A stretch of DNA of 64,000 bases, from NCBI GenBank assembly GCA_038245905.1, contig JBBRRY010000001.1, positions 1 to 64,000 on the forward strand. The letters run 5' to 3'. This DNA is from Thermoanaerobaculia bacterium (lineage in GTDB: Bacteria > Acidobacteriota > Thermoanaerobaculia > UBA5066). Within the stretch, counting starts at the first letter, position 1. The number at the start of each line of letters is the position of its first letter. The notes beneath the pieces were generated by a model. That model did no database searches. It was not told the DNA's origin and worked only from the letters and a program-made list of their open reading frames with translations. A program made the translations under genes and the position numbers. Shown piece by piece: positions 29,128 to 46,200 of this stretch.

Positions 29128-31131
29128 CTAAAGGCTCCAGCTCACGTAAAGGCGCCACTCCGACTGCGTCTTGGGCGCCTCCTGAAAGCCGCCCGGGTAC
29201 GTGGTCCTCCGGCCGTACCACGAATACCCGGCGCCCACGCCCAGAAGCCGGGTGAGCGGGATACGGGACGAGGCGCGGAAGAACTGAAGCGTGTTGCTGG
29301 AGGAGCTCCCGTTCGCGGTGCGCGCGTAGGCGACGCCGTAGCCGAGCCTGACGATCTCCCATTCCTTCCGGTAGAGGCGGGCGGCCAGGCGAAAGCCGCC
29401 GCCGGGCGCGTAGTCGTAGGTCCGGCCCGTTTCCGGGTTCAGGAAGTCGGTCGTCCGGATGCCGGCGAGCGGAAACAGAATCGCCGCGACGTCGGTCGAG
29501 ACCTTGAGGTCCGGCCGAAGGTTGTATCGGGAAAGGAGTCCGACGCTGAAGATCTGCGCGGCGAAGATCTGGGACTCGTTGCTGAAGTACTCGTACTCCT
29601 GGAAAACGCCGAGGATGTGTCGCAGCCGCGCGGTCTCATCGCCGAGCTCCCATCCCTTCAGGACGCCGCGACCCTCGACACGCGACACGCCGGTCGTCGC
29701 GACATCGGCCTCGAGCCAGAACGTGTCGAAGGGCTTGCGGATCTCGCCCGCGAAGGCGTCGCCGTAGACCGCCGAGAGGGAGACGATCCCCTGGTTCGGA
29801 TCCGCGGCTCCTGCGCCGATGTGCCGGTAGCCGAGGTCACCGACGACGCTGAAGCGGCTCGGGAGGCGCTCGTCGGGGTTCGAGAACTGGCGGGACATCT
29901 CGCCGTGCACGAGCCGGTTAAAGCCGCCCATCGGATCCACGATTACGCCCGCAAGCTCACGCCAGAATCGCGGGAGCCCGCTCGCCGTGTTGTCGCGGAG
30001 CATCACCCCGAGACGGTGCGCCATCTCCCCGCGGGACATGCCGCCGAACGTGGTGTTCACGATGTCGTTGATCGAGGGCTGGGTGTTCTCCATGCAGCAT
30101 TCCCAGAGGAAGCTGCCCGCCAGCGTGAACGCCCCCGACTCCCAGTAGCCGTAGCCGTTCGATCGCGCGGCGTTGAAGTAAAGGCTGCCGTGAAAGGGGT
30201 GGGCGGCCTGGTTGGTGTTGAAATCGTCGCGGTCGTAACCGAAGCCGGCCTTAAAGTTCTCCTTCACGGTCTGCGTGGAGATGAAGGCGAAATCGTCCTT
30301 GGTGACGTAACGGTCATAAGCCCAGGGCAGGAATTCCACGAGGGCGACTTCGCCCGCGGCCGTGAAGAACCGCTCCGGCGGGGCCGGGCGCCTCGACGGC
30401 GCCGCGAGGACGGCGGGGGAGGTCGGGGACGCCGGCGCGGCTGGGAGATCCCAGATGCGCGGTCCTCCGAACCGATACGACAGCCCGCCGGTGACCTCGG
30501 TGCTCGAGTAGAGGTCCGTCGTGAAACCGTAGCAGCCCAGACTCCCACAGACGACCGCGCCGGTTCCGGGGCTGGCGCTTCTCCAGCGATAGCGGGCGTC
30601 GACGCGGAGGGCGAGGCGCTGGCTCAGATAGAACTTTCCGCCGAGCGCGGCGTTCGCGACGAACCGCGTGTCCGCTTCCGTTTCGACGCCCGGGACGAAC
30701 GGGTGAAGCGTCATGACGCCCCCGCCGAGCCCCATGTACCCGCGTACGCGGCCCGCGCCGAACCCGTAGAGGCCGTTGAGCTCGTAGGTATTGACGTCGA
30801 TCGGCGCGGACGGCGCGAGCGAGGCCCCCGTCGACGGGCTGACCGCGGTGAGTCGTGCGCTTGCCCTGGACAGGCTGACTTCGAGGCTGAAGGTCTTGTC
30901 CACGCTGAAGGCACCACGGAGCCCGAACGCGGCTGATTTGCCGATCTCGATGTCGGTATTCTGGTCCAGGAAGATCCGGCTCCCGACGTAGCCGCCGGCG
31001 AACCCGCCGACTTCCCACCGGCCGGTGTCCTGCGCCATCGCCGGAACGGCCACGAAGCTTGCTCCCGTGAGAAGGGCTGCGGCAAGGCGAGCCGTGAAGC
31101 CCGATGGGGCAGACGACTTTCGAATGTTCAA
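29128..31131 (-). CDS. Outer-membrane beta-barrel plus DUF3943-like domain protein
   Basis: TTG start after GGAAGG-A8; signal peptide ending AMA/QD; OmpA-like barrel ending GGLSYRFG; NQAAHPFHGSLYFNAARSNG motif; C-terminal YVSWSL. Confidence 0.75.
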   Translation of the reverse strand: MNIRKSSAPSGFTARLAAALLTGASFVAVPAMAQDTGRWEVGGFAGGYVGSRIFLDQNTDIEIGKSAAFGLRGAFSVDKTFSLEVSLSRASARLTAVSPSTGASLAPSAPIDVNTYELNGLYGFGAGRVRGYMGLGGGVMTLHPFVPGVETEADTRFVANAALGGKFYLSQRLALRVDARYRWRSASPGTGAVVCGSLGCYGFTTDLYSSTEVTGGLSYRFGGPRIWDLPAAPASPTSPAVLAAPSRRPAPPERFFTAAGEVALVEFLPWAYDRYVTKDDFAFISTQTVKENFKAGFGYDRDDFNTNQAAHPFHGSLYFNAARSNGYGYWESGAFTLAGSFLWECCMENTQPSINDIVNTTFGGMSRGEMAHRLGVMLRDNTASGLPRFWRELAGVIVDPMGGFNRLVHGEMSRQFSNPDERLPSRFSVVGDLGYRHIGAGAADPNQGIVSLSAVYGDAFAGEIRKPFDTFWLEADVATTGVSRVEGRGVLKGWELGDETARLRHILGVFQEYEYFSNESQIFAAQIFSVGLLSRYNLRPDLKVSTDVAAILFPLAGIRTTDFLNPETGRTYDYAPGGGFRLAARLYRKEWEIVRLGYGVAYARTANGSSSSNTLQFFRASSRIPLTRLLGVGAGYSWYGRRTTYPGGFQEAPKTQSEWRLYVSWSL

Positions 31132-31163
31132 ATTTTTTTTCCTTCCGCTGAGCGGGGCCTTGG

Positions 31164-32102
31164 TCAGAAGTCGAGGCTCGCCGAGACACCGAGCGTGCCC
31201 GCGCTCAGGATCGGGAGGATCGTCAGTTGAGCACCGCCGCTCTCCGGCTCCGCCTCGCCCGACCGGAGTTTCCGGTTGAAGTGCACGACGGACCGGCCGA
31301 CCGCCGTGCCGATCGCCGCCGCCACGACCACGTCGGTCGGGAAGTGCTTGCCCCGTTGTACGCGAACGTATGCCGTCACCGCGGCCGCTCCGTACGCCGT
31401 GACCTTCACCCAGAGCTGGTCGTAGGAAGTCGCGATCACCGAAGCGACTGCGAACGCCTGGGTGGTGTGGCCCGAGGGAAACGACCGTCCTTCGAACGGA
31501 TGGAACGCATATGCGCCCTGGCTCTCTGTCGGCCGCTCGCGTCCGATCAGTGACGAGAGGACCGGCGTGATCATTCCGCTGGCGATCAGGCTGGCCGAGA
31601 GCCCATCGAAAAACACATTCTTCGCCTTCGAGTCGTGTCCGATCGCGCCAGCCAGATAGAACCCGCCGAGAAGCAGGAACGAGCGGCCGTCGCCCAGTCC
31701 CTCGAGCGTGTCCCCGACGAAACCGAGCGTGGATCCGCCTTCGCGCGCCCTGTCGCTCAACGCCTCGTCCGCGCGCGTCAGCGCGACGACTGCGGCCGTT
31801 GATGCCGAGAACAGAATCCATTCCCGGCCTCGCCAGTGGATCGGCGAGGTCAGGACGTGCCCCGTATCGAGGAGCACCATCTTCGGGAACGACGGAGGCC
31901 GGAATGGTTTCGGCTCCTCGACGGGAGCGGGTGGAACCGCGGCCGAGACCGGTGACGGCTCGATCCGTTCCTTCTCTTCCGTTTCTTCCGCCCTGCTGGA
32001 TGCCTGGATCGTCTCGGCCGCCGGGTACCGTGGAGTCACCTCCTGCGCGGTCGCCGGCGATGCAGACGCGCAGACTGAGACGATCAGGAGAATCGCGAAC
32101 AT
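31164..32102 (-). CDS. PAP2-family phosphatase
   Basis: GRERP, SFPSGH, RVQRGKHFPTDV motifs; N-terminal signal peptide. Confidence 0.88.
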   Translation of the reverse strand: MFAILLIVSVCASASPATAQEVTPRYPAAETIQASSRAEETEEKERIEPSPVSAAVPPAPVEEPKPFRPPSFPKMVLLDTGHVLTSPIHWRGREWILFSASTAAVVALTRADEALSDRAREGGSTLGFVGDTLEGLGDGRSFLLLGGFYLAGAIGHDSKAKNVFFDGLSASLIASGMITPVLSSLIGRERPTESQGAYAFHPFEGRSFPSGHTTQAFAVASVIATSYDQLWVKVTAYGAAAVTAYVRVQRGKHFPTDVVVAAAIGTAVGRSVVHFNRKLRSGEAEPESGGAQLTILPILSAGTLGVSASLDF

Positions 32103-32145
32103 TGGACCTCGTCTCGTCGGTGCATTCCTCAATGTCGGGTGATCC

Positions 32146-32160
32146 GCAAGTTGCGTGCCG
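32146..32160 (-). promoter_or_regulatory. Sigma54 -24/-12 promoter (PAP2/OM-barrel unit)
   Basis: CGGCACG-CAAC-TTGC on the minus strand, about 44 nt upstream of the PAP2 ATG. Confidence 0.75.
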
Positions 32161-32169
32161 GGCGTTTCG

Positions 32170-32184
32170 TGGCACGAGAGTTGC
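32170..32184 (+). promoter_or_regulatory. Sigma54 -24/-12 promoter (lipoprotein)
   Basis: TGGCACG-AGAG-TTGC, a consensus match, 34 nt upstream of ATG 32219. Confidence 0.85.
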
Positions 32185-32218
32185 GCTGTTCAGCACCGAC
32201 ACGAAAGGCAAGATCATA

Positions 32219-32872
32219 ATGAAAAGCAATTCCATCTCGACCGCAGTGTCGTGCCTCGGATCGGCGACCCTCGTTCTCGGTCTCGCCTGCGCCTCGAGCG
32301 GCCCTTCCCGCTCCGCGAAGACGGTGGAAACAATGGACGAGACCCACGCGGGCCTTACGAAGGTACGCACGCAGATCGACCGAACGTTGACGTCCCTGAG
32401 CGACCTGATGAGCGCCGGCCCGGAGAGGCTCCGGCCGACGTACAGCGCGTTCAGCAAGGACGTCGACAAGCTGCGAGCCGACGCCGTGCAGACGAAGAAC
32501 CGCTTTCGGAACATGAAGACGAAGAGAAACGACTATCTCGCGGCTTGGGGAAAGGAGCAGGGCCGTGTGAGCGACCCAGAGCTCCGGCAGATCGGCGACG
32601 CCCGTCGCTCGGAGGCTACGGCGAGCCTGGACAGGGCGATCGAGTCGCTGACGGTCGCGAACGAGGCATTCGACCCGTTCCTGAATAACCTCGCCGATGT
32701 CCAGAAGGTCCTCGGCAACGACCTTACTCCCGCGGGCCAGAGGCTCGTCTCGAACACCGCCGTCGTCCAGGGCGTCAACGACAAGGGAGCCCGCGTGGCG
32801 CGGAGCATCGACATCGCGCTCGCGGCGCTCTCGAACGTTTCGGGTCAGCTTTCTCCGAGCGCGGTGAAGTAG
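32219..32872 (+). CDS. Coiled-coil lipoprotein (DUF2959-like)
   Basis: Lipobox LGLAC; all-helical; DVQKVLGNDLTPAG motif. Confidence 0.75.
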   Translation: MKSNSISTAVSCLGSATLVLGLACASSGPSRSAKTVETMDETHAGLTKVRTQIDRTLTSLSDLMSAGPERLRPTYSAFSKDVDKLRADAVQTKNRFRNMKTKRNDYLAAWGKEQGRVSDPELRQIGDARRSEATASLDRAIESLTVANEAFDPFLNNLADVQKVLGNDLTPAGQRLVSNTAVVQGVNDKGARVARSIDIALAALSNVSGQLSPSAVK

Positions 32873-32876
32873 AGGC

Positions 32877-33506
32877 TCAGGGCTCGAGCCGGGACGCGTG
32901 CACGATGAACCGGTTCGGCGCATTCCCCACGTACGTGAACGGATAGCACGTCACGAGCGTGAGGACGGCGTCGCCGGTCGGGTCGAGAATCCGCGTCGCC
33001 TCCGGCGCGACCACCTCGGTCGACGCTACGCGGTACTCGTAGCGGCGGCCGGCCGTGCGTATGCGGATCGTGTCGTCGACCCGGATGTGCTTGAGCGCGC
33101 GGAAAAAAGAATCCCGGTGACCCGCGAGGGCCATGTTGCCCCGCTCGCCGGGCCGCGCCGTGCCGGGGATGTGTCCGACCGCCACGGAAAGAGTCGCGTC
33201 GTCGTCACCTTCCCGCACGATCGCCGAGACCCCGATCCGCGGGATGTCGATCCGGCCGAGAACGAGCGGATCGACGTCCAAGGCAGCCGCGGACGGTCCC
33301 TCGGACGCCGGCGTCGAAGCGGGCGCGACCCGGGATGCTGACGCGCCGGCCCTTCGCTCCACTTCGGAAAAGGCGCGCCCCTGGCGCGCCTGGTAGACCC
33401 GGCTGTTGACGATCGCTACGAGGGCCACGCCGAGGAGAGAGAGGCCGATCGCGCAGAGCGCGAGATCGGCCCCGTGGAACCACCGTGCGATGCCGGACCT
33501 GGTCAC
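32877..33506 (-). CDS. Sortase (class D-like)
   Basis: N-terminal TM anchor, GRIDIPRIG, AGHRD (His), TLVTC (Cys), RFIV (Arg). Confidence 0.93.
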   Translation of the reverse strand: MTRSGIARWFHGADLALCAIGLSLLGVALVAIVNSRVYQARQGRAFSEVERRAGASASRVAPASTPASEGPSAAALDVDPLVLGRIDIPRIGVSAIVREGDDDATLSVAVGHIPGTARPGERGNMALAGHRDSFFRALKHIRVDDTIRIRTAGRRYEYRVASTEVVAPEATRILDPTGDAVLTLVTCYPFTYVGNAPNRFIVHASRLEP

Positions 33507-34201
33507 ACCGCCCGGTTCGCGAGTGCGCGAAGCCCGAAAGCGCCGCCCAGAGACAAGAGCCCCAGCGCGGCGAAGAGGGGAACGTGACTTGCGGTCGCCG
33601 GCAGCTGCTTGACGGGACGGGCCTCCGCCACGACGGCGACCGGCACCGGCGCTTTCTGAACTACGACCACCGGCTCTTCGTACGGCTTCACGTTCTGATC
33701 CGGCGTCACGACCGTGAAGGTCGCCGTCTTGTAATCAGCTTCCTTGACCTCGTCGGGGATCGCGATCACGGGCTCCTTGGCCAAGGCCGCGAGCTCCATA
33801 GCGCGCCGCTTCGGATAGATGATGTCCTGGCCGTTCGTCGTGTCGCGAGCGAACCACGTGCGAAGCGCCCTGGGTTGACCTGCCGCGGCCGTGTAATAGA
33901 TGTAGCGGCTGGTTGGCACCACCTCGTTCGGCCGGAGGGTGTGCGGCGTGGCGAGGACGCTGGCGAAGACCTTCGTCTGCTCCTCGTTCGTGACCTGAAT
34001 CATGTTGCGGTTGGACGCGAGCATCACGACCTTGATCAGGTACGTTCCCGGCTGAAGGGTGACGCCCCCTACATCGACCGGCTCCGTCACGGTGAAGGTC
34101 GAGTTCTCCCGATCGCTCTGCGCATAGGCGGCGGGCGTCGATACGATCCCGAGGAGCGTCGCGAACGCGCCCAAGGCCAGGCATTTCATCAGCGTTTTCA
34201 T
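33503..34201 (-). CDS. Secreted protein with LPxTA sorting signal (sortase substrate)
   Basis: Signal peptide; C-terminal LPATAS, hydrophobic TM and basic tail; overlaps the sortase start. Confidence 0.85.
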   Translation of the reverse strand: MKTLMKCLALGAFATLLGIVSTPAAYAQSDRENSTFTVTEPVDVGGVTLQPGTYLIKVVMLASNRNMIQVTNEEQTKVFASVLATPHTLRPNEVVPTSRYIYYTAAAGQPRALRTWFARDTTNGQDIIYPKRRAMELAALAKEPVIAIPDEVKEADYKTATFTVVTPDQNVKPYEEPVVVVQKAPVPVAVVAEARPVKQLPATASHVPLFAALGLLSLGGAFGLRALANRAV

Positions 34202-34274
34202 CTCAAACCTCTTCTTTCTTCTTGATGTTGATGGACTCTGGACAGACCGGAGACGGTCCAGCAGCCGGAGGAGC

Positions 34275-34829
34275 TCAGTTGAGAAGGTTGACGACCTTCT
34301 TGACGCCCTCGATCGAACGGGTCTTCTTGATTGCGGCCTTCGAGGACTCGGGGTTGTCGAGCTTGCCGCGCAGGCTGACGACGCCGTCGACGACCTCGAC
34401 CTCGATCTTGAGTGCGTTCCTTCCGATCTCGGTCAGGAGGATTCCCTTGACCTTCAATTCGAGGGCCACGTTCTTCACGGAGGCTTCGCTTGCGGCCAAC
34501 GGCCCGGCGGCGTCCTTCACCGTCACCTTGTTGTCGACCTTCTTGATCCCGTCGACCGACAGGGCGACCTCCTCGGCGAGGCCCTGGCTGGGTGACTTCG
34601 CCACTTCACCGGTGAGCGTGGCTGTCTCTCCGGAGACAGAGACGCTGATCCGGAGGGCGTCTGCGCCGAGCTTGTCGATCAGTCTGGCCCTGACGGAGGT
34701 GGCATTGAGCGCGTCGGAGACTTCCGTAGGAACCGCATGGGAGGTGTCTGCGGCGTTCGCGGGTGACGCCACGAGAAGCCATGTGAGGGAGAGGGTTGCC
34801 GCGAGGATCGGTACAAAGTTCCTTTTCAT
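34275..34829 (-). CDS. Two-BON-domain periplasmic protein (OsmY-like)
   Basis: Signal peptide; two repeats ending VDGIKKVDNKV and IEGVKKVVNLL; AGGAG RBS. Confidence 0.88.
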   Translation of the reverse strand: MKRNFVPILAATLSLTWLLVASPANAADTSHAVPTEVSDALNATSVRARLIDKLGADALRISVSVSGETATLTGEVAKSPSQGLAEEVALSVDGIKKVDNKVTVKDAAGPLAASEASVKNVALELKVKGILLTEIGRNALKIEVEVVDGVVSLRGKLDNPESSKAAIKKTRSIEGVKKVVNLLN

Positions 34830-34858
34830 TGAATGAATCTCCTGCTCTGCCTCACAGC

Positions 34859-34873
34859 GCAATTCCCCTGCCA
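34859..34873 (-). promoter_or_regulatory. Sigma54 -24/-12 promoter (BON-LPxTA-sortase unit)
   Basis: TGGCAGG-GGAA-TTGC on the minus strand, 29 nt upstream of the BON ATG. Confidence 0.8.
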
Positions 34874-34927
34874 GGTGCGGTTCGAACGGCACGACGTCTT
34901 CACGACCGATTCGCTCTTCAAAACGGC

Positions 34928-34956
34928 CGCCCCCCGGTGAGCCCGGCCGGGGGGCG
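34928..34956 (-). terminator. Putative terminator hairpin after csbD
   Basis: Perfect 10-bp stem CGCCCCCCGG/CCGGGGGGCG, 9-nt loop, then GCCGTTTT on the minus strand. Confidence 0.5.
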
Positions 34957-34989
34957 CGTAACGTGCAGAACGTTCCGATCCGACTCGAA

Positions 34990-35193
34990 TTATTTCTTGA
35001 TGGCGTTGCCGAGATCCGTCAGAGCCTGGCCGACTTTGTGGCTCACCTTGCCGAGACCCTCTTCGATCGCGCCCGTCGTGCGCTGAGCCGCACCCTCCCA
35101 TTCCATCTTCTTGTTGCCCGAGAGGATTCCAACGGCCTCTTTCACTTTCCCCTTGGCCTTGTTCACTTTCCCGTCGACTTCCTGCTGTTTCAT
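34990..35193 (-). CDS. csbD: CsbD-family general stress protein
   Basis: GKVNKAKGKVKEAVG.L.GN..EG pattern; 67 aa; AAGGAG RBS. Confidence 0.9.
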   Translation of the reverse strand: MKQQEVDGKVNKAKGKVKEAVGILSGNKKMEWEGAAQRTTGAIEEGLGKVSHKVGQALTDLGNAIKK

Positions 35194-35230
35194 GGTGTTC
35201 TCCTTTCCGTACTTTCCGTGAGAGGGATAC

Positions 35231-35245
35231 GCATGCGCTATGCCA
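35231..35245 (-). promoter_or_regulatory. Sigma54 -24/-12 promoter (csbD)
   Basis: TGGCATA-GCGC-ATGC on the minus strand, 37 nt upstream of the csbD ATG. Confidence 0.7.
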
Positions 35246-35256
35246 TGCGGGGCCCA

Positions 35257-35784
35257 TTACGACTTGGGCGTGCTCTCCTCAGTGTTCGGTGCGGGGGCCA
35301 TCCCCGTCTTCATCATCGGGCAGTCCATTCCGCCCCTTCCGCCGTTCATGTGCATGTGATGGTCCATGTGCGCCATCGTCCCGTGATGCATCTCCATCAT
35401 CATCGAGCGAGAGGCCTTGCGCTGGGCGACGAGCTCGTTGAGGACGGCCGCCATCGGCCTCTCCAGGGCGCCGACATCCTTGGACGCCTTGGCGGCGTTC
35501 ATTTCCGCCACGAGCTTGTCCAGCGTGGCGTCCATCGCGAGCATCTTGTCCTGCATTTCCTGCTTCTTCGCCATCATGGATTCGCATTCCGCTTTCATGG
35601 CGTCGGTATGCTTGGCCGTTGCCGCGCTGCCCCTGTGGTGGCCCGTCATGGAGGTCGTCCGCGGGCTCTTGGCGGCCGTGGAGGGAGCTGCAGGCGGAGG
35701 CGTCTGGGCGCCGGCGCTCACGGCCAACGCGAGCGCGGTCGCGGCAATTGCGCCTGGAACGAGAGCGCGGAGGTGCATGTTCAT
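35257..35784 (-). CDS. Secreted Met/His-rich helical protein (possible metal binder)
   Basis: Signal peptide; MMMEMHHGTMAHMDHHMHM and CPMM; GAGGA RBS. Confidence 0.7.
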   Translation of the reverse strand: MNMHLRALVPGAIAATALALAVSAGAQTPPPAAPSTAAKSPRTTSMTGHHRGSAATAKHTDAMKAECESMMAKKQEMQDKMLAMDATLDKLVAEMNAAKASKDVGALERPMAAVLNELVAQRKASRSMMMEMHHGTMAHMDHHMHMNGGRGGMDCPMMKTGMAPAPNTEESTPKS

Positions 35785-35861
35785 TGTCGTTTTCCTCATT
35801 GCGGCCCAAGGGACCGCGCGTTTGGGCGCCTTGGGGTCGCCAGGCGCGGATGAAAGTGCGG

Positions 35862-36080
35862 CTACTTCTTCGCGCGAACGAAGAGCAGAACCCCGCCGAC
35901 CACGATCGCCGAGACGCCGGCCCACACCGGCACGTTGACGCTCTCCTTTTCCTTGATCGCAAACTCGAGCGGCCCGATCTTTGTCTGATGTGTCTTTTTG
36001 GTGTAACTGAAGCCGCCGTACAAGAGCGCGAGAACGCCCGCGACGAGAAGAACGAGAGCGACGCCTTTGGACCTGTCCAT
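35862..36080 (-). CDS. Small 2-TM membrane protein (DUF3185-like)
   Basis: TM-GGFSYT..KIGPL..VPVWAG-TM; AAGGAGG RBS. Confidence 0.75.
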   Translation of the reverse strand: MDRSKGVALVLLVAGVLALLYGGFSYTKKTHQTKIGPLEFAIKEKESVNVPVWAGVSAIVVGGVLLFVRAKK

Positions 36081-36142
36081 CTAGTGGCCTCCTTCGGAAC
36101 AGCAGTTCGTGTCCATTTCTGACTTCACGAGCTTGAAGAGCA

Positions 36143-36211
36143 GCCGATCGGCCCGGCGCCCACGATCGCCACGGTGTCTCCCGGCTTCACCTGGCCGTTC
36201 AGGACCCCGCA
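36143..36211 (-). pseudogene. Relic fragment of a zinc-dependent alcohol dehydrogenase
   Basis: Translates CGVLNGQVKPGDTVAIVGAGPIG (MDR Rossmann GxGxxG segment), with an in-frame TGA immediately upstream. Confidence 0.75.
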
Positions 36212-36229
36212 TCATGTCTCGAGGCTTTC

Positions 36230-36244
36230 GCAACAACGATGCCG
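36230..36244 (-). promoter_or_regulatory. Sigma54 -24/-12 promoter (ADH relic / DUF3185 unit)
   Basis: CGGCATC-GTTG-TTGC on the minus strand. Confidence 0.65.
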
Positions 36245-36353
36245 CATGGCCGTCGCACCGCCGTCGAGCCGGGCGTGTGCGCGGCGGCACGTTTTGCCGA
36301 ATCGTGCGGAAAAGTGTGCCGATGTTTTATGCTCCTCGCGAGGCCCTTTTTCG

Positions 36354-38003
36354 ATGCCTGACCCGCTCCGCGTTCTGCTTGTCGACGCCGACGAGGCCGC
36401 CGTCGCTCTGATGCGCGGCCATATGGCAGAGATGAAGGCTCCAATCGACATGGAGCGGGCCGCGAGCTTCGGCGTCGGCCTCGAGCAGATGACGTCACAC
36501 CACTACGACGCCCACCTCGTCGCCTCCCGGATCGGCACACGGAGCGGGTTAGAGCTCCTGCGCGCCTACCGCGAGTCCGGCGGCGATGGTGCCGTGATCC
36601 TGATCGCGGACGAGCCGGACCGGGCCGAGGACCTCTCAGCTCTGGAGAGCGGCGCCTCGGACTACCTCGTCCGAGATCGTCTCGATGCGACCCTGCTGGA
36701 GAAATCCATTCGGTACGCGGTCGAGGAGTCGAGGCGCGCGGCGGGCCTCCGCCGCGTTCGAGACGAGTTCGAGACTCGGGTCGCCGAGCGGGCCGACGTG
36801 CTCGAAACCATGAACGAAGCACTGGCGGCCGAGGTGGCCGAGCGGCGGGCGGCCGAGCGTGCGCTACGCGAGGAGGACCGCCGGAAGGACGCGTTCTTCG
36901 CCACGCTGGCACACGAGCTCCGCAATCCCCTCGCGCCGCTGTCGTTCGCGACCGAGATCCTGTCGCGGACGAGCGACACGCCCGAGGAGCAGGCGAGGCG
37001 CGAACGCGCCCTGCGCGTGATCGAGCGTCAGGTCGCGCACATGGTGCGTTTGATCGACGATCTTCTCGACCACTCCCGTATCACGCACGGGAAGCTGGAT
37101 CTGCGCCGCGAGCGGGTGTCCCTCGCGGTCGTCATCGAGAACGCGCTCGAAACGGCAAGGCCTCTTCTAATCGGTCGCCGGCAGGCGTTCGAGCTGATCG
37201 TGCCCGAGGTGCCGGTGCCCCTGCATGTCGATCCGATGCGTCTCGCGCAGGTTTTGTCGAACCTTCTCTCGAACGCCGCCAAGTTCACCGAGCCGGGCGG
37301 ACGCATCCGCCTCGAGGCCGTTCGAGACGGAAATGACGTCGTGGTGTCGGTCGTCGACTCCGGGATCGGGATCCCGGCGGCGCACCTTGCGCACGTCTTC
37401 ACGATGTTCGGTCAGGGGCACCGCGCGCAGAAGGCAGTCTTCGGAGGACTCGGGATCGGCCTCGCTCTTGCGAAGGGCCTCGCCGAGCTGCACGGCGGCA
37501 CTCTGACTGCGGCGAGCGACGGCGAGGGGAAGGGGAGTGTCTTCACGCTCCGTCTCGCGTGCGCGGCAGACCACTCCGCCGCTCCGGTGGCGACGCAGAC
37601 TCCGCCGAGTGTGACGCCGCCCTCACGCCGGATCCTCGTCGTCGACGACAACGTCGAGGCCGCTCTCACGCTCGCCGAGCTGCTGGCGCTCGAGGGGCAC
37701 GAGACGCACGTCGCGCACGACGGCCCGGCCGCCGTCGATGCCGCGCGGCGCCTGAGCCCCGACGTCGCGATTCTCGACATCGGCCTGCCCGGGTTCGACG
37801 GGCTCGAGGTGGCGCGCCGTCTCCGGGCGGAGCCGGGACTCGGGGACCTTCTCCTCGTGGCTCTCTCGGGCTGGGTCCAGCCGGACGATCGGGAACGATC
37901 CCGGGAGGCTGGCTTCGACTATCACTTCGCGAAGCCGATCCGGCTCAAGAGCCTCGAGCTCGTCCTCCTGGAAGCGCGGGGTGATCGAGGCCGTAATGCT
38001 TGA
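36354..38003 (+). CDS. Cytoplasmic hybrid histidine kinase (pseudoREC-HisKA-HATPase-REC)
   Basis: [29 protein letters not shown]; C-terminal [13 protein letters not shown]; N-terminal REC lacks the phospho-Asp (HLVASRIG); no TM. Confidence 0.92.
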
Positions 38004-39351
38004 GCCGGTTGTAGACCGTCTTGAGGCTGATGCCGAGGAGCTCGGCCGCCGTCTTCCGGTCTCCCTTCACGGCCTGCAAGGTGGCGATCAGCAGCTTTCG
38101 CTCGACCTCTTCCAGCTTTTCTCCGACGCGCACCGGCACGGCGGGCCATGACTCGCCCGGCGGCTCCGCCTCCGGCGGGCGGTCGACCAGGTGCGACACG
38201 TCGAGGACCGCCTCCACGGCCTCTGTCTGAATGAGGGGCGGGTCGCTCAGGACATAAGTCCGATGCACCGCGTTCCGAAGCTCGCGCACGTTGCCAGGCC
38301 AGTCGTGACGGTCCAGCATGCCGAGCGCTTGCGCCTCGAACGATGTGAAACCGCGCCGCTCCTTCTCCTCGACCTGTGAAAGGAAGTGGCCCGCGAGAGC
38401 CGGGATGTCCGGCTTGCGCTCTCGCAGGGACGGCATGCGGAGAGGGAAGACGTTGAGCCGATAGAAGAGGTCGGGGCGAAACGACTTGCTTTTCACCGCC
38501 TCGGCCAGGTCGCGGTTCGAGCTCGCCACGAGCCGGACGTCGACGTCCAGCTCCTCGTTTCCGCCGACGCGCCGGAAGGCTCGGGTGTCGAGGACCCGAA
38601 GGAACTTCACCTGCAGCTCGGGCGGCATCTCCGTCACCTCGTCGAGGAAGAGGGTTCCTCCGTGGGCCATCTCGAAGGTGCCGGCACGGCGCCGCTCCGC
38701 CCCCGTGAACGCACCCTTCTCGTGCCCGAAGAGCTCGCTCTCGACGAGAGTCGGCGAGATCGCGCCGCAGTTGACTGCGACGAACGGTCCCCGAGCGCGC
38801 CGCGAGAGGGCGTGCACGGTGCGGGCCGCGATCTCCTTGCCCGTGCCGCTTTCCCCGGTGATCAACACGGGCGCTTCGGAACCCGCAACGCGGGAGATCA
38901 GACGGAAGACCTCCCGCATCGCAGGTGAGCGGCCGACCATTTCCCCGAGCTGACCCGTGCCCGCCGGCCCGAGATGTACGGCGGGCGGTGGAGCCCGATG
39001 CTCGGCAAGGCGCGCGAGAGCCGACGCGAGGAGAGTGGGCTTCAGGGGCTTGAGGAGGAAGTCGTAGGCGCCGGCCCTCATCGCGTCGACCGCGGCGAGG
39101 ATCGAGCCCTTGCCCGTCAGAACGAGAACGGCAGAATCCGGGCGAACCGCCTTCGCGGCGCGGATAACGTCGAGCCCATCCCCGTCCGGCAGCCCGAGGT
39201 CGGTGATGCAGACGTCCGGCGCTCCACGTGTCAATGCGTCGCGCGCCTCCGCAACCGAGCCAACGGCGGATGCCTCGTATCCGAGCTCCTGAATGAGCTC
39301 GACGAGCGACGCCCGGACCCTTGGCTCGTCCTCCACCACGAGGAGCTTCAT
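37945..39351 (-). CDS. NtrC-family sigma54-dependent response regulator
   Basis: REC (CITDLGLP), [36 protein letters not shown]-terminal HTH. Confidence 0.96.
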
Positions 39352-40019
39352 GCTTCGCCCGGGCGCTCGGCGTCGCCTTCAAGCCGGACTGGCCACGAGA
39401 CGAGCGCCACGAGACGCCCATCGCGCTCGGTCAGCTCCAGCCGACCGCCATCGGCTTCGAGGGCGGCCCGGGCCACGAATAGAGACTCCGCTTCCTCGAT
39501 CCCGTGCGGCAGATCGAGGAGCCGCTCGGGACGACCATCGGCTATCACCCGCGACCCCTCGAAGGTCAAGGTCACCCGCCCGGTCTCGAGTCCCGCTCGT
39601 CCCATCGGCGAGGGCGTGCCGTCGCCTCGCGTCATGAACGACGCAACGCTCTGAATGGCCTCGGCCGACGACCTGTGCCGCAGCGGCAGCCGCGAAACGA
39701 CTCCGTCCTTTTCGTGGAGCGGAACACCCGCGGTGCGGCAGATGTCCGGGAGAGACGTCTCCTCCGGCCGCTCGCCGGCGATTTCCGCGAGGCGAAGCAA
39801 GAGGTCGAGGAGCCTGTTCGCCGTGCCCAAATCGGCCTGTGCCGCCCTGACCCGCTCCACCACCCACGAGGGATCAGCTCCGGACTGCGTCTTGAGCCGC
39901 CGATCGACGAGGTCGAGCTTCAGCGCGGCCGCCGAGAGCGGATCGGCCAGGGCATGCCGGAGAGCACGCAGGGTATGGGCGGATCCGCCCGCCGGTTCGG
40001 AAGGTGATGCGGCGTCCAT
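39348..40019 (-). CDS. Degenerate histidine-kinase-like protein (possible phosphotransferase)
   Basis: H-box-like [11 protein letters not shown]; HATPase-like tail ([16 protein letters not shown]) lacking N/G1/G2 boxes; ATGA overlap with the NtrC gene. Confidence 0.65.
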
Positions 40020-40084
40020 ATCGACCGTCAATGAAAGTAGCACATCCGCCCGGGGGGCATCTCGTTCCAGGGAGGGCGTCGGGG

Positions 40085-40522
40085 TCAGGCCGCGAGGTGG
40101 TCGAGCATCGAGGAGAGCTGAGCGATGTGCTTCCGCTGCCGCGGGATCAGCTCGAGCTCGACGAGGTTTCGGGCGTCCTCGTCGAGCGAGTCCAAGGCGG
40201 TCTCGTACTCGGTGAGACCGCGCTCCTCGACCTCGAGAAGGGCGTCCAGAAACGCCTTCCTTTCGACCAGGACCGACTTGCCGTCGCCGTTAAAAGCGGC
40301 GGAGACCGAGTCTTGCCAGGAGTGCGCCAGGACATCGGGCGCTCCCCCCCGCGCATGAACGGATACCTGAAGAGCAGTGACCGTTCGCTGGTGCTCCGCG
40401 GCGAGCTGCAGGAGCTGGTCGCCCTCGGCGAGGGCCTTCTTCTTCATCGCGCGTAAGGCCGCCTGATATCCAGCCACGGCGGCGAGCTCGACGCGAAGGA
40501 GGGAGTTGAGTCTCTCGAGCAC
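40085..40522 (-). CDS. Ferritin-like four-helix-bundle protein (DUF2383-like)
   Basis: LNSLLRVELAAVAGY..EH..GGAP..EERGLTEY..QRKHI; GTG 40522 chosen because the ORF start at 40537 lies inside the sigma54 site. Confidence 0.8.
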   Translation of the reverse strand: MLERLNSLLRVELAAVAGYQAALRAMKKKALAEGDQLLQLAAEHQRTVTALQVSVHARGGAPDVLAHSWQDSVSAAFNGDGKSVLVERKAFLDALLEVEERGLTEYETALDSLDEDARNLVELELIPRQRKHIAQLSSMLDHLAA

Positions 40523-40533
40523 GTTTTGGCTAC

Positions 40534-40548
40534 GCACACAGTATGCCA
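40534..40548 (-). promoter_or_regulatory. Sigma54 -24/-12 promoter (ferritin-like / pseudo-kinase / NtrC unit)
   Basis: TGGCATA-CTGT-GTGC on the minus strand. Confidence 0.6.
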
Positions 40549-40752
40549 GCCATGGTCGCCGATGTTTGACGGTTCGCCGCCGTCTTCCCGGTCCCTCTGT
40601 TCAAAAATCGGCACGTTTGACGAAAGAGACCGGTAAGGCGTGCAGAGATGAGATGCCCCCGGGAGCGCAATTTTCGCCATCCACGAACCTGAGAGGTCGC
40701 CATGCGATATCTTCGCGGAGTCTTGGACGCGTAAACGATCTGGAGGAATGAA

Positions 40753-42882: not shown

Positions 42883-43074
42883 CTAGTCGGACTCCCTCCG
42901 GCCCTCGAGATGGACGAGGTCGCCGCCCGGCGCTACGACGGCAATCACGATGGGCTGGCAGCAGACGCTGCAGTCCTCGACGTACTCCTGGCGCGCAACC
43001 GAGCAATCGACCTGAATCTCGATCTGCTCTCCGCAGTAGGGGCACTGCAGGAATGCGGCTTCCAGGTTGGTCAT
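42883..43074 (-). CDS. CPXCG-motif cysteine-rich small protein
   Basis: CPYCGE...YVEDCSVCCQP. Confidence 0.88.
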   Translation of the reverse strand: MTNLEAAFLQCPYCGEQIEIQVDCSVARQEYVEDCSVCCQPIVIAVVAPGGDLVHLEGRRESD

Positions 43075-43225
43075 CCCTCGAGATTACTCTCGCGAACCGA
43101 AGCCGGCATTTATCAAGCTCCGGGCGAACGGCTTGCGAAGCATTTCTCTCGATGGCAGACGCTATGCTCCCGGCCGGGTTAGGCTGTGAAGGGACCGTGA
43201 CGAACGAAACGATGGGAGCGATGCC

Positions 43226-46200
43226 GTGAGGAGTTTCAGGGACGCGCGGTCGGAAACGGCGCCGTTTCTCGACGACAGCGTGGGCTGGAATGCTCCCGCG
43301 CTGCTCGGGGAGATCCTCAGTCTCGAAACCCTCGAAGAGCGCGCGACGGCCCTCGCGGCCCATCTCACGCTGGCGCGCGAGTCGAAAAGGAGCAGCCGCG
43401 CTCATCTCGACCGCCTCGAGAGGAATATGGAACGGTTGCGCAGCGCGTACCTCGCGCTCGCCGACGACGTCCATCGAGGCGAGCCGCTCGCGCCTGCGGG
43501 GGAGTGGCTGCTCGACAACTTCCATCTGCTCGAGTCCGAGTCCCGGGCCGTGCGCCACGACCTGCCCCCGCGCTACTACAAGAAGCTCCCGAAGCTCGCC
43601 TCGCGGGAGCACGCGGGGACGGCGCGACTGTATGCCATGGCGGTCGAGCTCATCCGCTCGGGAGACGGGCGCCTCGATCTCGAGCGCCTGACGCGATTCC
43701 TGAAGGCGTATCAGACCGTGGCGCCGCTCACGATCGGCGAGCTGTGGGCCTGGCCCAGCATCCTGAAGCTGGCGCTGCTCGAGAACCTCCGCCGCCTCTC
43801 GGACGGCCTTCTCGCGCGGCGGCGGGGGCGCCGCGCCGCCGACGAGATCCGCGCCCGCCTCGAGCGCGGCGACCGTGCCGTGCCGCTCCCGAAGGTCCTG
43901 GATCCGGCCTTCGTCGCCCAGCTCCTCTCGCACATGCGCGAGTTCGATCCGCGCCTTTCCGTGCAGCGCGCCGAGCTGACGACGCGCCTCACCGAAGATG
44001 GGACGACCGCGGAAGACGCCGTGAGGGCGGAGCATCAGCGGCTCGCGACCGAGCAGGCGTCCACGGCGAACTCGATTACGAGCCTCCGCCTCGTGGCGGC
44101 GATGGACTGGAGCCGGTACGTCGAGGGCGTGAGCCTCATCGAGCAGATTCTGCAGCGGGATCCCGCGGGTATTTACGGGCGCATGGATTTCGAGAGCCGG
44201 GACCTCTACCGCCACGCGGTCGAGGAGCTTGCCGACCCCACGGGCGAGGCTCAGGTCCGCGTGGCGCTCCGCGTCGTGGCGAGCGCCCGGCGGCCTCCGG
44301 AAAGCCCTGGCTGGAAAGAACGGGCCGCGCACGTCGGCTATCACCTCATCGGAGGGGGGCGGCCCGACCTCGAGACAGACGTGGCCTTCCGCCTGCCGCT
44401 CCTCGGCCGCGTCGGGCGCGCGCTTTTCGCGCGGGCCGACGGCGTGTACCTCTCGGCCATCGCCTTTCTCACGTTTCTTGGGGTCCTCGTCGCGGTGACG
44501 CCTCTATGGGCAGGCGGCGCTTCCATCCGGGCCCAGCTTGCCGCGGCACTCCTGGTCCTCCTGCCGGCGAGCGAGATCGCCATCGCGCTGATCCAGCGCA
44601 TCGCGACCGGGCTTGTGCCCCCGCGCCGCCTCCCGCGGCTGGATCTCTCCAGCGGCGTGCCCGAGAGCGCGCGGACGATGGTCGTCGTTCCGACGCTCTT
44701 CTCGAGCGTGGAGGGGGTGCGCGGCCTGATCGACCACCTCGAAGTTCAGGCTCTCGGCAACCTGGACGCGAACGTCCATTTCGCGCTCCTCGGCGACTTT
44801 CTCGACGCCGAGACCGAGACGCTGCCGGAGGATGCCGGAATCCTCGCGGCGGCGCGCGCCGGGATCGAGGAGCTGAACAACCGTCACGCGGCCGGCAGGA
44901 ACGACCGCTTCTTTCTCTTCCACCGGTCCCGCACGTGGAATGCGAAAGAGGGCCTCTACATGGGCTGGGAGCGCAAGCGGGGGAAGATCGAGGAGTTCAA
45001 CCGCCTGCTCCGTGGGGCCACGGGAACCCGCTACACGCAGATCGTCGGCGACGTGGCGATCCTTCCGTCCGTCCGCTACGTTCTGACGCTCGACTCCGAC
45101 ACGCGGCTCCCGCGCGGAACGGCCCGCTCGCTGATCGGGATCCTCGCGCACCCTCTCCAGCAGGCGCACGTGGACCCGAGGCTCCGGCGGGTCACCGAGG
45201 GATACGGAATCCTCCAGCCCCGCGTCTCGATCACGCAATCCGGCGCGGCGGACTCGCTGTTCGCGCGCGTCTATTCGGGGCACACCGGAGTCGATCCCTA
45301 TTCGCGGGCCGTGTCCGATACGTACCAGGACCTCTTCGGAGAGGGCATCTTCACGGGGAAAGGCCTGTACGACGTGGACGCGTTCGTCGCGTCTCTCGAG
45401 GGCCGCGTCCCGGAGAACGCGCTGCTCTCACACGACCTCTTCGAGGGCCTCTACGCGCGCACGGCCCTCGTGTCGGACGTCGAGGTCGTGGACGACTATC
45501 CGGCGAACGTCCTGGCCCACGCGCGGCGGCAGCATCGCTGGGTGCGGGGCGACTGGCAGATCCTCCTGTGGCTGTTCACGTTCGTCCCGGCGCGGCACGG
45601 CATCGTGCGAAACCGTCTTCCGTTGATCAGCCGCTGGAAGATCCTCGACAACCTCAGGCGCAGCCTCGTGGCGCCGGCCCTGCTCGCGCTCTTCTGCGCC
45701 GCCTGGACCGTCCTGCCCGGAGCGCCTCTTCTCTACACGCTCTTCGGGCTCACGGTCCTCGCGCTCCCTCTCGTCTTTGCGCTTATGGGAGGGTCGCTGG
45801 TCGAGCGCGGCCGCGGACCCGTGCGCGTTTACGTGCGTGGCGTGCTGACGGACCTCGCCATCGCCGCCGCGCAGTCCTTCCTGGCTCTCGTTCTCCTGGC
45901 CCAGCAGGCGTGGGACACGGTACACGCCGTCACGCTGACGCTCGTCCGGCTCCTCGTCACCCAGAGGCGCCTTCTCGAATGGGAGACCGCCGCGGCCCAG
46001 GCGGCGCGTGCGGCGGGCCTCCTCAGCGCCGGCGCTCGCTCGTTCCTCGCGGAGATGATCGCGAGCCCGCTCGTTGCGGTCGCGGTCGTCGCGATGACGC
46101 TCTCGGTGCGTCCCACAGCGCTCTGGCTTGCGGTTCCGTTCGCGGCCGCGTGGATTGCGGCGCCCTTTGTGGCGTTTTGGCTCAGCCGGCCGCTCCAGGC

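Follow-up and report, generated by a model that had tools for sequence, protein, structure and literature searches.

Introduction

Does an 11.5-kb block of genes from an uncultured Thermoanaerobaculia bacterium form a sigma-54-dependent stress and envelope regulon that is governed by a relay encoded in the same place? The block spans positions 29128-40625 of a 64-kb stretch of DNA, hereafter the window (the whole stretch that was analyzed), which is the start of contig C1 in a 3.8-Mb assembly with 67% GC and 96% completeness. A sequence-only reading of the window had noticed six sigma-54-type promoter sites in front of genes of general-stress type, along with genes for an NtrC-type activator and a hybrid histidine kinase, and had proposed that these parts belong together. 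We consider it reasonably probable that the block is such a regulon, with a local relay and with feedback.

Acidobacteriota are abundant in soils and sediments, few have been cultured, and their stress physiology is little known. Sigma-54 depends on ATP hydrolysis by an activator and has tight off-states. Here, gene content was assigned by Pfam, NCBIfam and inspection of translations, and relatives were collected through a 231-amino-acid (aa) protein of the block, orthologs of which (46-83% identity) were found in 21 other genomes when 61 from the same genus and family were searched. A first set of 20 of these loci was fetched, and a wider set comprised 41 loci (591 kb), including Holophagales. 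The relatives found in this way are all uncultured Acidobacteriota, mostly Thermoanaerobaculia and some Holophagales; one carries the label Acidithiobacillales.

Sigma-54-type sites

The gene for sigma-54, rpoN, is present in the genome (Sigma54_DBD, 214.8 bits, C1:207577-208050). All six sites of the form YGGCA-N7-TGC that had been reported from the block are found there, each upstream of, and on the same strand as, a transcription unit (Table 1). The pattern occurs 10 times in the window against 3.54 expected, a count reached by 0 of 100 shuffles. Genome-wide there are 249 matches, and the block holds 7 against 0.75 expected (Poisson P ∼1.4e-5), so the comparison of site density with the genomic background came out in favor of the earlier reading. 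The densest 11.5 kb of the genome for this motif begins at 32146. The seventh match in the block (37496, forward strand) lies within the kinase gene and is treated as chance. Another 11.5-kb stretch with 7 matches lies at C6:83532-94845, and the top score of the genome with a sigma-54 matrix, 20.8 bits at C6:90993 on the reverse strand, falls inside a crudely called coding sequence.

Several points weigh against taking these sites at face value. The weakest of the six sites, at 36230, scores 12.0 with a simple consensus and 5.4 bits with a small trained matrix. Orthologs of these promoters served as the training set of the sigma-54 matrix, and its scores in close relatives are therefore partly circular. 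Its reversed-sequence control gave more matches than the real strand and is invalid as a null, for which the untrained pattern and the genome-wide density comparison were substituted. Gene calls are crude.

Conservation of the sites in rearranged loci

The genes for the 231-aa protein (a putative phosphotransferase, see below) and NtrC are adjacent in 20 of 20 loci, a DUF2383 gene stands ahead of the pair in 17 of 20, and the kinase gene is usually convergent with NtrC. The genes for CsbD, BON, sortase substrate, sortase, lipoprotein, Met/His-rich protein and a 72-aa membrane protein are shuffled, duplicated or interrupted among relatives. This shuffling provides a natural test of the sites, and the sites move with the genes. 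We applied the simple consensus score and counted a gene row if a GG-N10-GC site of at least 12.5 was present within 300 nucleotides (nt) upstream, with the row of the window included. A site was found in 19 of 19 DUF2383 rows, with GC 11-14 nt before the start in 16, and in 7 of 7 BON rows, 23-30 nt before the start. Nine of 12 CsbD rows have one, and the three siteless CsbD genes stand directly behind the Met/His gene. Among four lipoprotein rows (the window and 3 orthologs), two reach the threshold and two have a TGGCGG form that scores 11.5-12.0. Only 2 of 8 rows for the 72-aa protein are counted, the window's own site scoring 12.0, and the Met/His gene has a site in 3 of 8 rows, in genomes where the adjoining 72-aa gene was undetected in the fetched locus. 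A 16.2-bit site is present 28 nt ahead of the PAP2 ortholog in L046.

Control rows, by comparison, gave 1 match in 80 (phosphotransferase 21, NtrC 21, kinase 14, sortase 8, substrate 10, outer membrane protein 2, amidase 2, glyoxalase 2). The sole match is a substrate gene whose upstream BON gene is lost; the other 9 of 10 substrate rows are siteless. Conservation and synteny, which had been named as a check on the original proposal, thus bear it out: the sites are kept in homologous but rearranged loci.

The wider set of 41 loci contains 114 sites of at least 13 bits, a density of ∼1 per 5 kb; the whole 3.8-Mb genome has 58. Behind these sites are ∼30 genes for DUF2383, 14 for CsbD, at least 9 for a 144-148-aa lipoprotein, 5 for BON and 4 for the 72-aa protein, as well as genes for DUF5670, Transgly_assoc and Gly-zipper proteins, glyoxalases, AI-2E transporters, B12/radical-SAM proteins, an L,D-transpeptidase and alcohol dehydrogenase (ADH). 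Despite the partial circularity of the matrix, the sigma-54 consensus is plain by eye in the listed sequences of this set. The pattern of sites and genes extends to Holophagales loci, in which identity of the putative phosphotransferase is 43-52%.

It could be argued that the sites lack promoter function and reflect chance occurrence of GG-N10-GC in GC-rich DNA. The motif is short and frequent, one of its matches lies inside the kinase gene, and the 36230 site scores low. Against this stand the local excess of matches, their correct strand and distance to start codons, their survival of gene shuffling with almost none in control rows, and the presence of rpoN, an activator and an enhancer (see below). 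Because of conservation and enrichment we reject the chance explanation, to which we give hardly any credence. The combination of rpoN, enrichment and conservation in rearranged loci supports the view that the six sites behave as real sigma-54 promoters, as far as can be judged from sequence comparison.

A tandem-dyad enhancer

Alignment of the regions upstream of conserved promoters uncovered a predicted enhancer, CGGCACGcTTTgCCG-N7-CGGcAAAgCGTGCCG. This dyad of 37 nt consists of two 15-bp palindromes, CGGCA-N5-TGCCG, with centers approximately two helical turns apart. Loose searches with a half-site, or with the outer arms alone, were swamped by chance matches in the GC-rich genome, and a full matrix was used instead, built from 22 instances that come exclusively from other genomes and scanned over all 3.8 Mb. 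Five matches exceeded 12 bits, at 46.7, 29.0, 17.0, 15.0 and 13.1 bits; the last three are intragenic, and the best match on reversed sequence reached 12.4 bits. The tandem dyad occurs exactly twice in the genome, and both copies are in the block. Enhancer 1, the better of the two, has its center ∼60 nt upstream of the weak 36230 promoter. At the ortholog of this promoter in L026/L046, the site scores 15.0 bits and an enhancer lies 67 nt upstream of it. Enhancer 2 lies upstream of the promoter of the DUF2383-phosphotransferase-NtrC operon.

Relatives contain 26 dyad elements in 16 loci, and at 19 promoters the element center is 48-108 nt upstream of the -24 GG. These promoters serve genes for DUF2383, a 147-aa lipoprotein, BON, the 72-aa protein, CsbD, glyoxalase, AI-2E and a small HTH_8-only protein. 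The 147-aa lipoprotein gene is often divergent from its neighbor, with the enhancer in common. The geometry of the dyad is that of an activator binding site, and the local NtrC would be the obvious binder, since the dyad is confined to the locus of NtrC.

The dyad might instead be the operator of a different DNA-binding protein, its nearness to sigma-54 promoters being incidental or repressive. Enhancer 1 does lie 33 nt before the kinase start, a possible operator position. This explanation, which we regard as improbable, is difficult to reconcile with the restriction of the dyad to this locus, its association with the system in 16 related loci and its enhancer-typical spacing from the -24/-12 sites at 19 promoters. 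The two-palindrome layout is also the one expected of NtrC-type enhancers, which are bound by dimers of HTH_8 activators.

The position of enhancer 2 upstream of the activator operon implies autoregulation. Positive feedback, which had been suggested from the first inspection of the sequence, is supported in that a candidate sigma-54 promoter and a predicted enhancer both precede the activator's own operon. The evidence from distant relatives (L059-L073) weighs against a general form of this conclusion. In these loci the phosphotransferase-NtrC pair is divergent from DUF2383, and a conserved sigma-70-like element, TTGACG-N17-GATGCT/GATCCT, lies ∼100 nt before the phosphotransferase start. Because a sigma-70-like element precedes the pair there, sigma-54 autoregulation seems not to be universal, and specific to closer relatives.

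The same operon is predicted to give rise to a leaderless transcript. In sigma-54 promoters the GC is at -12, and in the promoter of this operon the GC is located just 11 nt before the GTG start codon of the DUF2383 gene. The mRNA would accordingly have its 5′ end at the start codon or within 3 nt of it. Since the DUF2383 domain begins at the GTG codon, the start cannot be further downstream. The DUF2383 leaders of more distant relatives are ∼66-69 nt.

A small gene related to the activator was observed in two relatives. It encodes 166-167 aa that correspond to the C-terminal HTH_8 region of NtrC alone (68-73% identical; L045:12148-12651 and L047:14612-15112) and sits beside the kinase gene where the kinase is separated from NtrC. 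The gene has its own sigma-54-type site, and in L047 an enhancer lies 94 nt upstream. Its product may be a competitor for the enhancer, which would provide negative feedback, or the gene may be a relic of the 3′-end overlap of the kinase and NtrC genes. This overlap amounts to 59 nt in the window (37945-38003), where the two genes are convergent, and is retained in, for example, L022, L026 and L031-L035.

Promoters without an enhancer and the extent of the regulon

The first reading had connected all of the outputs to sigma-54 through the local activator. This holds up for the two enhancer-bearing units; it falls short for four of the six promoters, which have no enhancer and for which the activator is unproven. 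The four precede the BON, CsbD, lipoprotein and PAP2 genes, and in the block no enhancer was detected at these promoters even at very low thresholds, nor were half-sites above chance. Just 9 nt separate the lipoprotein and PAP2 promoters, which stand back to back with no space for an enhancer between them. When the upstream regions of the enhancer-less promoters were compared by k-mers, no alternative motif common to them emerged. The sigma-54 activator domain is matched 28 times in the genome, in roughly two dozen genes, and other activators could serve the four promoters. These observations count against control by the local activator.

A mosaic arrangement has to be weighed here, in which the local activator runs just the two enhancer-bearing units, and CsbD, BON-sortase, lipoprotein and PAP2-outer membrane protein are under other activators. 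It is in keeping with the distribution of the enhancer over the six promoters, with the number of activator-domain matches and with similar enhancer-less promoters before stress-type genes elsewhere in the genome (see below). It is harder to square with relatives, whose BON, CsbD, 147-aa lipoprotein, glyoxalase and AI-2E promoters carry the same enhancer at 48-108 nt. Some relatives also have back-to-back DUF2383 and lipoprotein promoters whose sole enhancer is ∼550 nt away, a spacing that makes action at a distance plausible, and no other motif is common to the enhancer-less promoters. We think the mosaic arrangement rather unlikely, albeit deserving of serious attention. Measured from enhancer 1 of the window, the CsbD promoter is ∼1.1 kb away, that of BON ∼1.4 kb, and the lipoprotein and PAP2 pair ∼4.1 kb. 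We infer that the local activator may also control the four enhancer-less promoters, in line with the regulon reading.

The output genes are of general-stress types, as had been recognized: CsbD, an OsmY/BON protein and small membrane stress proteins are present, and the block contains the only CsbD gene and the only BON protein gene found genome-wide. A search of the genome with the rpoS model gave no match above its cut-off, only sub-threshold ones; SigB and EcfG were not searched.

The description of the system as self-contained did not survive. Promoters of this kind are found before stress-type genes on contigs C16, C20 and C2 (Table 1), none of them with an enhancer, and another precedes a GH94 gene in the window, outside the block. 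The lipoprotein behind one of the C16 sites is 82% identical to the relatives' lipoprotein that shares an enhancer with DUF2383. The candidate promoter of the GH94 gene, a seventh in the window, scores 15.6-15.9 bits in 2 of 3 close relatives compared at the 5′ region of this gene. The system's locus includes an ortholog of the GH94 gene in 8 related loci, and it is directly downstream of DUF2383 in three Holophagales loci.

Two further stretches were noted in the genome. One, on C16 (30351-32000 and 38249-38741, L083), is a second sigma-54-rich stretch, with no enhancer nearby. The other, C4:101265-101868 (L086), has a 19.7-bit site 27 nt before the gene for a 185-aa regulator with PAS and LuxR/GerE domains, which may constitute a second tier of the cascade.

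Kinase, putative phosphotransferase and activator

The hybrid kinase had been called sensorless, and indeed no membrane segment or known Pfam sensor domain was identified. Its H-box is conserved, and the acceptor position of its N-terminal receiver-like domain is a residue other than Asp in 11 of 11 aligned sequences, which marks this domain as a pseudo-receiver. The block also encodes, as reported, an NtrC-type activator with the GAFTGA motif (Pfam and translation), and residues D51, T79 and K101 of its receiver are invariant in the alignment.

The gene between DUF2383 and NtrC had been labeled a pseudo-kinase. The label is apt insofar as the 231-aa product is predicted to have a kinase-core fold without ATP-binding motifs; we read it as a putative phosphotransferase. 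It belongs to no Pfam or NCBIfam family and has no HisKA or HATPase_c match at an expectation value (E) of 0.01. All 21 sequences compared share an invariant H-box-like motif with H30 and also keep a C-terminal ARA..DGG..L motif; the N, G1 and G2 ATP-binding boxes are absent from the alignment as read by eye. The AlphaFold (AF2) model, with a predicted local distance difference test (pLDDT) of 79.6, consists of a dimerization and histidine phosphotransfer (DHp) hairpin and an alpha/beta domain that resembles the catalytic and ATP-binding (CA) domain. Foldseek searches with this model returned HK853 (E to 1e-10), WalK/YycG, DivL and ChpT (4fmt, 3e-8; also 4fpp). A profile search against PDB sequences found no solved relative, its sole match being an unrelated hydrolase (E = 0.78), which was discarded. 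The family is small, with 50 clusters at E ≤0.001 among 1.84 billion representatives, the nearest Atlas clusters being unnamed Acidobacteriota proteins, and the protein is single-copy in the genome. By Pfam, NCBIfam and profile it is not a member of the ChpT or Spo0B sequence families. No Hpt match of the kind expected for a relay with a histidine phosphotransfer (HPt) domain was found by Pfam in any protein of the block.

The 231-aa protein is most likely, on the basis of this model, a ChpT/Spo0B-like phosphotransferase between the hybrid kinase and NtrC. Such a relay is the simplest reading because a hybrid kinase is encoded on one side and a translationally coupled receiver-type activator on the other. 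A complex of the phosphotransferase dimer with the NtrC receiver was predicted with a score of 0.59, against 0.02 for the best control, a result that the program itself grades as ‘weak support’. Of 157 solved complexes, 116 attained the mark that it passed, as did 2 of 215 mismatched pairs; just 18 of the 157 solved complexes passed with a score of 0.60 or less, and so did both passing mismatches. Contact agreement between runs was at least 93%, and the partner pLDDT was at least 82. The pass may be explained by likeness to solved kinase-regulator complexes.

According to the mechanism that we propose, the hybrid kinase would autophosphorylate and hand the phosphate to its own C-terminal receiver, from which H30 of the 231-aa protein would take it for delivery to D51 of NtrC. 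The activator would then bind the 37-nt dyad and activate sigma-54 holoenzyme 50-110 nt downstream. Direct targets would be its own operon (DUF2383, phosphotransferase and NtrC), constituting the positive feedback, and the unit of the 72-aa and Met/His-rich proteins. The CsbD, BON-substrate-sortase, DUF2959 lipoprotein and PAP2-outer membrane barrel units would be transcribed from four further sigma-54 promoters, and others elsewhere would drive similar genes. The enhancer-less promoters would probably take part in this response too, through action at a distance or a rise in the level of the activator.

Relation to known systems

The individual parts (sigma-54, an NtrC-type activator, paired palindromic enhancers and autoregulation) are familiar, and the tandem-dyad enhancer is new here. 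Escherichia coli NtrB-NtrC and ZraS-ZraR likewise have an activator with receiver, AAA+ (GAFTGA) and HTH_8 domains, paired palindromic enhancers tens of nt upstream, and operon autoregulation, and ZraSR has a role in envelope stress as well. Unlike these systems, the block combines a soluble hybrid kinase with a separate phosphotransferase, has CsbD/BON outputs and uses a different enhancer sequence. The Vibrio LuxQ/CqsS-LuxU-LuxO pathway is similar in having a hybrid kinase, a separate histidine phosphotransfer protein and an NtrC-type sigma-54 activator, and sub-threshold matches to NCBIfam LuxQ_Vibrio and LuxO_transreg_Vib occur in the block. In contrast to LuxU, an HPt four-helix bundle, the middle protein here is predicted to have a kinase-core fold (DHp plus a degenerate CA domain); the kinase differs from LuxQ and CqsS in having no membrane sensor, and the outputs are different. 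ChpT (of the Caulobacter CckA-ChpT-CtrA pathway) and Bacillus Spo0B are small dimers that combine a DHp hairpin and a phosphorylatable His with a CA-like domain devoid of ATP binding, as is predicted here, but the present protein lies outside their sequence families and its putative target is a sigma-54 activator.

Closer in regulatory architecture is DVU3305 of Desulfovibrio vulgaris, in the parts of the two reports that were available to us a sigma-54 activator of its own genes and of neighboring genes for UspA-type and membrane proteins, discussed as a general-stress three-component system (PMC3333781, PMC4641369). As in the block, a receiver-type sigma-54 activator would act on its own operon and on an adjacent operon of membrane or stress proteins. 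DVU3305 is described there as working with a kinase and with a Lon-protease response regulator, and as having UspA-type and hypothetical proteins for outputs; neither a phosphotransferase nor the CsbD/BON set is mentioned, and the organism belongs to another phylum. A comparative study has made the case for control of the cell exterior by sigma-54; by term search of the accessible text, Acidobacteria, CsbD and OsmY go unmentioned in it (PMC3162934). In the literature covered, mostly outside subscription journals, we found no account of this relay or of sigma-54 control of CsbD/BON-type genes.

The CsbD, OsmY/BON, ferritin-like, Gly-zipper, Transgly_assoc, DUF883-like and DUF5670-like outputs are those of SigB, RpoS and EcfG regulons. 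Unlike in those regulons, the promoters here are of the -24/-12 type and would depend on sigma-54 and an ATP-dependent activator, not on a stress sigma factor of the sigma-70 family. If the reading is correct, a whole lineage connects its general-stress outputs (CsbD, OsmY-like BON, small membrane proteins and probably cyclic glucan) to sigma-54. The design logic would be distinct from that of RpoS, SigB and EcfG, because sigma-54 requires an ATP-hydrolyzing activator and has tight off-states. As a more far-reaching and still tentative view, which we hold to be possible but short of probable, at least two classes of Acidobacteriota (Thermoanaerobaculia and Holophagae) may run their general, osmotic and envelope stress responses via sigma-54 in place of a sigma-70-family sigma factor. 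An unrecognized relay of a sensorless hybrid kinase, a lineage-restricted ChpT-like family and NtrC with a new enhancer would govern this response, amplify itself from a leaderless transcript, and reach many promoters from few enhancers, at kilobase distance or in trans. The concrete parts are an enhancer that occurs twice, a small unannotated family of putative phosphotransferases, a predicted leaderless mRNA and promoters that are apparently independent of a nearby enhancer. Synthetic DNA in E. coli would allow work on all of these parts without a culture of the organism.

Gene content of the block

The features of the block and of related sites are collected in Table 1.

Table 1. Coordinates of promoters, enhancers and genes, in window positions unless a contig is given.
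Feature	Position	Strand	Score or basis
PAP2-outer membrane barrel promoter, CGGCACGCAACTTGC	32146..32160	-	14.3 bits; GC 43 nt before ATG 32102
Lipoprotein promoter, TGGCACGAGAGTTGC	32170..32184	+	16.9 bits; GC 34 nt before ATG 32219
BON-substrate-sortase promoter, TGGCAGGGGAATTGC	34859..34873	-	19.7 bits; GC 29 nt before ATG 34829
CsbD promoter, TGGCATAGCGCATGC	35231..35245	-	16.5 bits; GC 37 nt before ATG 35193
Promoter of relic/72-aa/Met-His unit, CGGCATCGTTGTTGC	36230..36244	-	GC 149 nt before 36080, the gap to the 72-aa start occupied by the ADH relic
DUF2383-phosphotransferase-NtrC promoter, TGGCATACTGTGTGC	40534..40548	-	20.1 bits; GC 11 nt before GTG 40522
Candidate seventh promoter, TGGCAGACGCTATGC	43153..43167	+	12.5 bits; 54 nt before GH94 gene
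Predicted enhancer 1, CGGCACGTTTTGCCG-N7-CGGAAAAGTGTGCCG	36285..36321		46.7 bits, best in genome; 33 nt before kinase start
Predicted enhancer 2, upstream of DUF2383-phosphotransferase-NtrC promoter	40609..40645		29.0 bits, second best in genome
Outer membrane beta-barrel and DUF3943 protein, second gene of PAP2 unit	29128..31053	-	Pfam OMP_b-brl, DUF3943
PAP2-family phosphatase	31164..32102	-	Pfam PAP2, 65.5 bits
DUF2959 lipoprotein	32219..32872	+	Lipobox-like N-terminus; Pfam DUF2959, 36.7 bits
Sortase, nearest class D (LPxTA-specific)	32877..33506	-	Pfam Sortase
Secreted protein, sortase substrate	33503..34201	-	C-terminal LPATAS, hydrophobic stretch and basic tail (translation)
Periplasmic protein with two BON domains, OsmY-like	34275..34829	-	Pfam BON x2
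Terminator-like hairpin, GC-rich, then U run; end of CsbD unit	34920..34957	-	CsbD-BON spacer fold -40.2 kcal/mol
CsbD-family protein	34990..35193	-	Pfam CsbD, 47.4 bits
Met/His-rich secreted protein	35257..35793	-	Translation
72-aa two-helix membrane protein	35862..36080	-	Translation
Zn-dependent ADH relic, residues 176-209	36110..36211	-	tblastn against intact ADH of L056
Hybrid histidine kinase, cytoplasmic	36354..38003	+	Pfam: receiver-like, coiled coil, HisKA, HATPase_c, receiver
NtrC-type activator (receiver, AAA+ with GAFTGA, HTH_8)	37945..39351	-	Pfam, translation
231-aa protein of kinase-core fold, putative His phosphotransferase; true start maybe Met9	39348..40043	-	
DUF2383 ferritin-like four-helix protein, first gene of activator operon	40085..40522	-	
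GH94/glucoamylase-domain protein, 2751 aa, cyclic beta-1,2-glucan synthase-like	43226..51481	+	Pfam
Site before 148-aa lipoprotein	C16:38718		16.0 bits
Site before small membrane, DUF883-like and Gly-zipper proteins (first two labels weak or by eye)	C16:30351		17.1 bits
Site before Transgly_assoc protein	C20:22879		18.1 bits
Site before Gly-zipper protein	C2:175215		17.8 bits

The gene content that had been described is largely borne out by Pfam and NCBIfam; the label DUF3185 for the 72-aa protein fails, with no match to that family and DUF202 below the Pfam threshold, and the lipoprotein could be specified as DUF2959. Two assignments are borderline: DUF2383 (29.8 bits in Pfam, slightly under the cut-off of 30.8) and class D for the sortase (132.2 bits against NF058671, cut-off 140). 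Neither the sortase substrate nor the Met/His-rich protein matched a family in Pfam or NCBIfam. A scan for sigma-70 promoter and terminator consensus sequences gave 1 promoter-like and 6 terminator-like sites, a number not above that in shuffles.

The ADH relic is real, as had been supposed: its 34 aa, which end at a stop, share 68% identity (tblastn) with an intact Zn-ADH of a relative, and the intact gene has its own sigma-54-type promoter in front. An ortholog of the outer membrane barrel gene follows PAP2 in the related locus L026. Beyond the block, at 42883-43074 on the reverse strand of the window, a gene for a small Cys-rich CPXCG protein lies between racemase-like and glucan synthase-like genes.

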